Shown here one piece after another: positions 18,063 through 18,216 of a stretch of 45,681 bases of DNA. The notes below the pieces were generated by a model. It had not been told where the DNA came from. It made no database searches and saw only the letters and a list, made by a program, of their open reading frames with translations. This DNA comes from a virus (Duplodnaviria; Heunggongvirae; Uroviricota; Caudoviricetes): IMG/VR virus record IMGVR_UViG_2563366991_000003; one strand, 5' to 3'. Position 1 is the stretch's first letter. Every line of letters starts with the position of its first letter. Both the position numbers and the translations under genes were made by a program.

Positions 18063-18138
18063 GCCGACTTAGCTCAGTAGGTAGAGCAACTGACTTGTAA
18101 TCAGTAGGTCACCAGTTCGATTCCGGTAGTCGGCACCA
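18063..18138 (+). tRNA. tRNA-Thr (anticodon UGU)
   Basis: 76-nt cloverleaf GCCGACTTAGCTCAGTAGGTAGAGC...GGTTCGATTCC...CACCA; anticodon loop CTTGTAA; recalled near-identity to E. coli thrU. Confidence 0.8.
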
Positions 18139-18141
18139 TAT

Positions 18142-18216
18142 GCGGGTATCGTATAATGGCTATTATCTCAGCCTTCCAAGCTGATGATGCGGGTTCGATT
18201 CCCGCTACCCGCTCCA
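18142..18216 (+). tRNA. tRNA-Gly (anticodon UCC)
   Basis: 75-nt GCGGGTATCGTATAATGGCTATTATCTCAGCCTTCCAAGCTGATGATGCGGGTTCGATTCCCGCTACCCGCTCCA; recalled near-identity to E. coli glyT. Confidence 0.85.

Follow-up and report, generated by a model that had tools for sequence, protein, structure and literature searches.

The 45,681 nucleotides (nt; about 45.7 kb) of the viral record IMGVR_UViG_2563366991_000003 from IMG/VR, hereafter the window, contain two adjacent genes for tRNA-Thr(UGU) and tRNA-Gly(UCC) at positions 18063-18216, located between a Q-like late regulator gene and the lysis genes of a lambdoid prophage. This raises the question of where the pair comes from and what it does for the phage or its lysogenic host. 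A first-pass annotation had read the two genes as copies of host thrU and glyT captured from the tRNA cluster near tufB, and this interpretation is essentially right. As a whole, the locus is explained best, and with moderate confidence, as a host-derived, functional tRNA pair within a self-contained cassette of the late region. The tRNA pair itself is ordinary, widespread and already annotated in hundreds of genomes, and the modestly novel part of the locus is a structured RNA of 385 nt linked to it. Beyond the earlier interpretation, the analysis adds a junction that points to a single origin, a conserved footprint of a private promoter with its leader, and this RNA, which seems distantly tied to the STnc100/PasD small RNAs (sRNAs).

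Exactly two tRNA genes were called by ARAGORN across the window, Thr(tgt) at 18063-18138 and Gly(tcc) at 18142-18216, both on the plus strand, with CCA encoded at the end of each gene and a spacer of 3 nt (TAT) between them. The Rfam tRNA model (RF00005, gathering score 29 bits) agrees, with 73.8 bits for the Thr gene and 63.1 bits for the Gly gene, and a reading as pseudo-tRNAs is ruled out by these calls and scores. The close likeness to the host genes noted earlier is confirmed: the Thr gene is identical to thrU of Escherichia coli K-12 at 76/76 positions, and the Gly gene, a derivative of glyT, at 72/75 (96%). The differences of the latter are confined to positions 6, 25 and 66. C6>U and G66>A represent a compensatory change of one acceptor-stem pair (U6:A66), C25>U turns G10:C25 into G10:U25, and the anticodon loops of both genes are unaltered. 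Identity for the threonine synthetase is conferred by G1:C72, C2:G71, G35 and U36, and for the glycine synthetase by G1:C72, C2:G71, G3:C70, C35, C36 and U73; direct reading of the sequences finds these positions complete in both genes. Judged by these features, the pair probably encodes functional elongator tRNAs of host origin, which would be processed and charged. In E. coli, thrU and glyT are single-copy genes, and no tRNA other than their products decodes ACA and GGA, respectively; the phage Gly copy is tagged by its sequence, so that its contribution to translation in lysogens is directly measurable.

The alternative that the genes form part of a chromosomal tRNA operon outside the prophage is ruled out, as phage genes lie on both sides and the spacer measures 3 nt, not the 209 nt of the host operon. 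Both tRNAs are situated inside the prophage on the late-gene strand. The window represents a full-length Rac-like lambdoid prophage, matched from the integrase gene through to the tail-fibre genes; its aligned parts are 99.8-100% identical to the prophage record vB_EcoS-683R6 and to strain 266917_2, and the integrase gene adjoins ttcA in both matching records.

Concerning the origin of the pair, the comparison with the thrU-tyrU-glyT-thrT-tufB operon of E. coli is informative. The order thrU to glyT, the strand and the encoded CCA are shared with the window. In contrast, tyrU, thrT, tufB, coaA and all spacers are absent from the window, the promoter and leader are unrelated, and the 209-nt interval that separates thrU and glyT in the host, with tyrU in between, is reduced to TAT. 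T plus AT is the residue expected if the second base after thrU through the third base before glyT had been deleted; as such a match arises by chance in 1 of 64 cases, it is consistent with a deletion but a weak trace of it. Tracing the capture by aligning the flanks with the host thrU/glyT region, as had been suggested, did not succeed, because no host flank survives beyond the 3-nt junction: homology to the K-12 operon ends within 1-3 nt of either gene end.

The junction itself is widespread. In 879 (16%) of the 5426 complete E. coli genomes, a query that spans it is covered, and TAT occurs in 47 of the 48 distinct phage copies, with TGT in the remaining one. The capture was therefore not an event of the window's prophage. 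Accordingly, the capture from the tufB-region cluster that had been proposed fits by identity, order and strand, but it appears to be ancient and shared rather than specific to this phage. The fused pair would go back to a single copying event, i.e., one old copy of the enterobacterial thrU-tyrU-glyT-thrT cluster in which tyrU and both spacers were deleted and thrU and glyT were left 3 nt apart, and which has probably been shared among lambdoid phages for long. In this sense, the locus may serve as a clean, datable example of a phage tRNA cassette born from a host operon via one deletion junction. Unrelated lambdoid phages harbour the same fused pair at this slot, namely the Stx2f phage phi467, PhiR47_1 (Met-Lys-Thr-Gly) and JLK-2012 (Asn-Thr-Gly), and the LT-IIb phage SerU-LTIIb has it twice. 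Phi467 has been identified as a VT2f phage, and the two loci have been mentioned in the same publication (PMC5189129).

After the capture, the cassette has evolved by compensatory change, apparent anticodon switching and decay. Among the 48 distinct copies, 25 have an unchanged thrU sequence in the Thr slot, and in 3 this slot is degenerate. The Gly pair 6:66 is U6:A66 in 43 copies, the host pair in four and C6 opposite A66 in one, and U25 is found only in the copy of the window. SerU-LTIIb (KU052038) has two cassette copies, and in one of them (1122-1197) the Thr gene features the anticodon TCT (G35>C) along with four further changes and is called as tRNA-Arg(UCU). Apparently, the anticodon has been switched to read the rare codon AGA, with the charging identity uncertain on account of C20 in place of the A20 favoured by ArgRS. 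In ETEC1749 and CM2010-0578/1, neither ARAGORN nor the annotation by the Prokaryotic Genome Annotation Pipeline (PGAP) has a tRNA in the Thr slot (around 1341-1416), and tRNA-Gly and the following RNA are still intact; one degenerate Thr-slot lineage carries about 13 substitutions. Since the Thr slot was lost while tRNA-Gly was kept, selection on the two tRNAs is unequal.

The decay of some copies would also be in line with a selectively neutral passenger that has no function of its own and, as a scar of recombination or a mosaic joint, is carried along by the late region. Likewise, homology between otherwise unrelated phages spans from the leader hairpin to the exact 3' end of tRNA-Gly, and the tRNAs thus mark mosaic boundaries. 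Nevertheless, the cloverleaf stems are kept by compensatory and wobble changes with high scores across diverged phages, the promoter and hairpin are conserved, the pair has reached 16% of the genomes, and signs of purifying selection are already partly present, which together make a mere passenger very unlikely.

The region upstream of the pair indicates that the tRNAs belong to a unit with signals of its own. As had been noted earlier, the surroundings are AT-rich, with 22-23% G+C over 17820-17999. The TTGACG hexamer that had been taken as a promoter element is indeed located at 17956-17961, within the AT-rich stretch 17820-17971, which is possibly an UP element or a silencing region. However, TTGACG was rejected as the -35 element, as the corresponding TTGAYR motif is conserved in several lineages without a conserved -10 partner. 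The conserved promoter footprint is instead a sigma-70-type sequence at 17972-17999 on the plus strand, resembling the putative promoter pT of phage 933W, with the -35 element TTGCGA (17972-17977), a 16-nt spacer and the -10 element TATTAT (17994-17999); it scored 9/12 in the promoter scan. TTGNNN-16-TAnnAT is kept in six diverged upstream lineages with unrelated spacers, 7-9 nt before the base of the leader hairpin, and this conservation suggests a putative private promoter in front of the tRNAs, which may be active independently of Q. The hairpin (18007-18059, plus strand) ends 3 nt before tRNA-Thr and has a minimum free energy of -20.4 kcal/mol (z = -2.5). It consists of an outer stem GGTTCT...AGAACC, a tandem G-A and an inner stem GGGGG/CCCCU, and its outer stem covaries between lineages (GGTTCT:AGAACC vs GGTTCC:GGAACC).

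Further upstream, directly after the stop codon of the Q-like gene, a conserved segment of about 110 nt (17710-17820, plus strand) ends in an intrinsic terminator (stem 17789-17820). It is conserved to about 90% upstream of copy b in SerU-LTIIb, and its part 17758-17824 matches Rfam STnc370 weakly (27.9 bits, under the gathering score). The segment occupies the place of pR', short RNA and tR' in lambda and 933W and is, by analogy, probably a short pR'-tR' leader RNA comparable to lambda 6S or StxS. The late promoter pR' was not pinpointed downstream of the Q-like gene; the candidate TTGATT-17-TTCAAT (17706-17734) is without the key A of the -10 element and was not called by the promoter scan. 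The cassette is thus flanked by terminators on both sides, 17789-17820 before it and 18575-18594 with the adjoining T-run after it.

The latter terminator had been described correctly as a strong one, but rather than just coming after the tRNAs, it marks the end of the overlooked RNA of 385 nt (18217-18601, plus strand), which is left unannotated by PGAP. The RNA consists of a 5' domain (18217-18336), a long hairpin (18342-18425), a 3' domain with an A/U-rich tail (18435-18574) and the terminator H12 (18575-18601; stem AACCGCC/GGCGGTT at 18575-18594 plus the U-run). Within the 5' domain, the alignment and its covariation define the helices H1 (18240-18247/18329-18336), H2 (18249-18252/18261-18264), H3 (18266-18273/18291-18299) and H4 (18301-18303/18315-18317). 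The long hairpin is formed near-continuously by H5 and H6 with 32 bp (27+5 pairs), with 99-100% of the alignment cells paired and double changes at 3 pairs, and it is a candidate substrate of RNase III. H7-H11 of the 3' domain (18435-18533) comprise a core distantly resembling STnc100/PasD, including the CGGGAGGCACCCG hairpin.

Evidence for the structure was obtained from 51 distinct sequences with pairwise identities of 63-100%, for which RNAalifold predicted 84 pairs in 12 helices. On this structure, 98.8% of the cells are paired, compared to 40-55% in slid controls, and 17 pairs show double changes, compared to 3-6 in slid controls and 8.7 +/- 1.6 in shuffles (0/500 reach 17). The copy of the window folds with -142 kcal/mol vs -105 +/- 5 for shuffles (z = -7.2). 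A coding function of 18217-18601 was rejected in view of open reading frames (ORFs) with TTG or GTG starts only, single-base indels inside conserved blocks and pair-preserving changes. The stretch is present in 328 E. coli genomes (about 6%), in full length in 217 of them, with 81-100% identity; 101 IMG/VR contigs and E. ruysiae contain it as well. Besides 266917_2, the cassette is carried by E. coli 042 and by E. coli W, whose trailer is 99% identical. A genome-wide motif scan outside E. coli gave one match with cassette-like flanks, that of E. ruysiae, and seven other matches in unrelated taxa which had no match to the cassette; the RNA appears to be restricted to Escherichia.

The close linkage of this RNA to tRNA-Gly invites a different view of the tRNAs, according to which they mainly act as processing signals: cuts by RNase P and at the 3' end would set and stabilise the 5' end of the linked RNA, and decoding would be secondary. 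A precedent is given by sRNAs matured from tRNA-operon spacers, e.g., 3'ETS-leuZ. The RNA directly follows the CCA of tRNA-Gly in every full-length locus inspected (7/7 genomes; 83 module instances overall), whatever the neighbours, which are a DUF1133 or a DNA methyltransferase gene upstream and essD/rrrD, TerB-DUF3927-holin or holin-M15 peptidase downstream. Moreover, its covarying structure begins about 25 nt past the tRNA, and the loci of ETEC1749 and CM2010 kept tRNA-Gly and the RNA with a degenerate Thr slot. Yet most genomes with the fused pair are without the RNA (879 vs 328), phi467 and PhiR47_1 have the pair alone, and both tRNAs keep their full identity sets, anticodon loops and CCA; 25 of the 48 distinct copies have a Thr gene that does not differ from the host's, and this constraint exceeds what a processing handle needs. 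A role primarily in processing is considered unlikely, although an IMG/VR locus (L048, 4138-5668, minus strand) counts in its favour: there, too, an STnc100-like 3' domain, this time lacking the trailer's 5' half, is situated amid tRNA genes, four in number. From this arrangement it follows that the sRNA-like domain is an independent module which repeatedly ends up next to tRNAs.

How the 3' half of the RNA relates to known sRNAs was addressed with covariance models. At the gathering thresholds of Rfam, only the tRNAs and RalA were found in the window. At a relaxed threshold, 18408-18604 matches STnc100 (RF02076) from end to end with 22.9 bits (E = 0.005, searched length 421 nt); filing the 3' half under STnc100 was rejected, as this score fails the gathering score of 47 bits. 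Conversely, a model built from the 3' domain (R1) recovers this domain from every variant locus, also from those without the 5' half, at 140-198 bits, and matches STnc100 of JLK-2012 with 32.7 bits (E = 1.6e-5; the element scores 107 bits in Rfam) and PasD2 of E2348/69, a strain of enteropathogenic E. coli (EPEC), with 20.1 bits (E = 0.0065; coordinates from PMC8550237). STnc100 of 933W is not found by R1 (9.5 bits), and a direct alignment to it has only the GGGAGGCACCC motif in common. PasD is a Northern-validated, Hfq-dependent prophage sRNA of EPEC (PMC8550237), and a shared ancestor of PasD and STnc100 as well as their location in the Q-holin region have been proposed (bioRxiv 10.64898/2026.05.13.724894; PMC12370729).

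With STnc100 and PasD1/PasD2 (EcOnc13), the 3' half shares the Q-holin location, a length of about 170-200 nt up to an intrinsic terminator, an outer GGUG...CACC stem, a first CCUC/GAGG hairpin and the hairpin of the CGGGAGGCACCCG or GGGAGGCACCC motif, in addition to the sub-threshold matches in both directions. Unlike them, it is preceded by the tRNAs and by about 200 nt of further conserved structure, and similarity at the level of BLAST is absent. It is therefore treated, by position and shape, as a putative distant third branch of the STnc100/PasD group; by analogy, it probably is an Hfq-type sRNA of the same kind. The 5' half matches nothing described. As the STnc100 match begins inside the long hairpin's 3' arm, cleavage by RNase III in this hairpin is conjectured to set the 5' end of the sRNA. 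With regard to the entire RNA, an analogy exists to ROOL and GOLLD, which are prophage-borne, ORF-free, highly structured and adjoin tRNA genes as well; the 385-nt RNA is much smaller, and the Rfam scan, which included those families, gave no match.

It is proposed tentatively, and as a rather doubtful reading, that 18217-18601 represents a new class of phage structured RNA: a 3' trailer of the tRNA precursor which would be matured by RNase P, 3'-end enzymes and, at the 32-bp hairpin, RNase III, would be expressed in lysogens from the prophage's own promoter, and whose 5' half (5' domain and long hairpin) would have a function of its own, e.g., control of read-through into lysis or sequestration of a host factor, instead of being a mere spacer before an STnc100/PasD-like sRNA. 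In the cassette, tRNA genes are physically joined to an RNA that has a strong structure and is akin to the STnc100/PasD sRNAs, a poorly understood group, and this linkage suggests a testable biogenesis route for these sRNAs, i.e., as trailers of tRNA precursors.

Returning to the host-derived functional pair in its own cassette, the slot between a Q-like gene and the lysis cassette is as had been described, with a DUF1133 gene upstream and a holin gene downstream. It is textbook knowledge that phages carry tRNA genes in the Q-to-lysis slot, and the locus has the features of a tRNA moron of the lambdoid late region: it lies on the same strand as its neighbours inside a lambdoid prophage, has terminators on both sides, and its tRNAs decode codons over-used compared to the host. 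The closest known counterpart is the pT-ileZ-argN-argO module of phage 933W (NC_000924), which lies on the same strand in the corresponding slot, preceded by Q, pR' and terminators and followed by the lysis genes, with the putative private promoter pT just upstream, a terminator just downstream, tRNAs that read rare codons and an STnc100-family RNA further downstream. In contrast to the window, 933W has one Ile and two Arg tRNA genes and no leader hairpin, and stx2AB is placed between its tRNAs and STnc100, whereas the structured RNA of the window abuts tRNA-Gly.

In the proposed mechanism, the fused pair would circulate among lambdoid phages as a small cassette between late regulator and lysis genes, in the order AT-rich region, promoter (17972-17999), leader hairpin, tRNA-Thr, tRNA-Gly, 385-nt RNA and terminator (18575-18601). 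In the lysogen, the cassette would be transcribed from its own promoter, and after induction it would be read by antiterminated late transcription, with Q-modified polymerase running on into the lysis and morphogenesis genes. Two transcription modes are possible because a terminator (17789-17820) also precedes the cassette, and by analogy we infer a moron-type unit that makes use of both. RNase P and 3' trimming enzymes would then release both tRNAs, and the trailer would be released as a separate RNA. The phage tRNAs would supplement the only host tRNAs that read ACA (as well as ACG/ACU) and GGA (as well as GGG).

This demand is reflected by the codon usage. The comparison included 39 phage genes (9404 codons) and a small host sample of 40 K-12 genes (15040 codons). 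ACA amounts to 16.0 per thousand codons in the phage genes and 5.5 in the K-12 genes, and GGA to 14.8 and 6.9, respectively, i.e., the phage genes use both codons 2-3 times more than the host genes. By absolute excess, ACA and GGA rank third and fourth of 61 codons, and they rank first and second among the codons having a dedicated minor tRNA; AAT and GAT rank above them but share tRNAs with AAC and GAC. The excess fits a supply of these codons by the phage tRNAs. A candidate beneficiary in the lysogen is trkG (20284-21759, plus strand), a gene of low G+C located after the lysis cassette as in K-12 Rac, in which ACA accounts for 0.32 of the Thr codons and GGA for 0.31 of the Gly codons, and which is also rich in ATA and AGA.

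Instead of serving codon supply, additional tRNAs might be a tool of counter-defence or superinfection which replenishes tRNA-Thr(UGU) and tRNA-Gly(UCC) depleted or modified by a toxin of the host or a rival phage, e.g., an anticodon nuclease or a GNAT toxin acetylating Gly-tRNA. The tRNAs of T5 neutralise the effectors of PARIS and retron-Eco7, toxins of the AtaT2/TacT type act on Gly-tRNA(Gly), and other conflict genes exist in the prophage (ralR/RalA and iteA/iteS). The phage-type acceptor pair U6:A66, prevalent among the Gly copies as described above, would agree with such a role. In contrast, the Thr gene does not differ from that of the host, and neither anticodon stem-loop is altered; the copies can therefore not evade a sequence-specific nuclease and only add dosage. 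Furthermore, neither the window nor the searched literature yielded a toxin specific for either tRNA, and counter-defence as the main purpose appears quite improbable.

Several points weigh against a functional pair in a self-contained cassette. Promoter activity, co-transcription, processing and a benefit for translation are what we infer from the sequences. As a single site, the promoter match is at chance level in AT-rich DNA (4 found, 3.9 expected). The tRNA pair is present without the 385-nt RNA in about 550 genomes, and the two parts are separable. Decay of the Thr slot or a change of its anticodon in some relatives means that selection on tRNA-Thr is not universal. The enrichment of ACA and GGA, which the first-pass annotation had suggested to look for in late genes, is present as predicted but stronger in early than in late genes; AGA and ATA are more enriched by ratio, yet the phage is without a tRNA for either, and the host values derive from those 40 genes only.

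The immediate neighbours of the cassette complete the picture of the late region. The Q-like gene upstream (17167-17709, plus strand) belongs to the DUF1133 family (Pfam, 357 bits) and matches Phage_antitermQ marginally (27.1 bits, cut-off 26); it is named a DUF1133 family protein by PGAP and antitermination protein Q in GenBank, and the assignment as Q is weak. A comparison with the PDB was uninformative, as the sole Q match, the N-terminus of Q21 (E=0.27), was no better than unrelated proteins. Downstream, the lysis cassette (18991-20164, plus strand) comprises a P21-type holin, lysozyme and Rz/Rz1. The gap of 390 nt before the holin gene (18602-18990), inspected on both strands, is ORF-poor and features a minus-strand terminator (18649-18626) and terminator-like hairpins on the plus strand (18887-18902 and 18930-18943). 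Over part of its length, it can be aligned to the sequence before the holin gene in SerU-LTIIb, phi467 and PhiR47_1. At this position, the sRNAs PasA/PasC are encoded in other prophages, and a BLAST search with the E2348/69 sequences found none like them in 17600-19100.

The remaining content of the prophage includes int/xis, ralR with the RalA sRNA, recET, kilR, racR, ydaS/T and replication genes, followed by iteA/iteS, DUF1367, YbcO, the DUF1133 Q-like gene, holin/lysozyme/Rz, trkG and the head and tail genes. RalA (1557-1735, plus strand; 220 bits in Rfam) serves as the antitoxin in RalR/RalA, a type I toxin-antitoxin system of Rac, and the matching records place ralR on the other strand. 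According to the PGAP names in the matching genome, iteA (an anti-phage ATPase) and iteS (an S8 peptidase) form a defence gene pair at about 11700-15867, between the replication genes and the nin-like region. An IS1-type insertion of 768 bp (13692-14459) with terminal inverted repeats of 23 nt and a target duplication of 9 bp (GGTAGTGAG, 13683-13691 and 14460-14468) splits iteS, which is intact in 266917_2 and vB_EcoS-683R6; the IteAS defence system of the window's prophage copy is thus probably inactivated. Finally, between kilR and ydaF (around 6555-6680), strain 266917_2 has an extra tandem copy of about 122 nt compared to the window, as seen from overlapping BLAST segments only.

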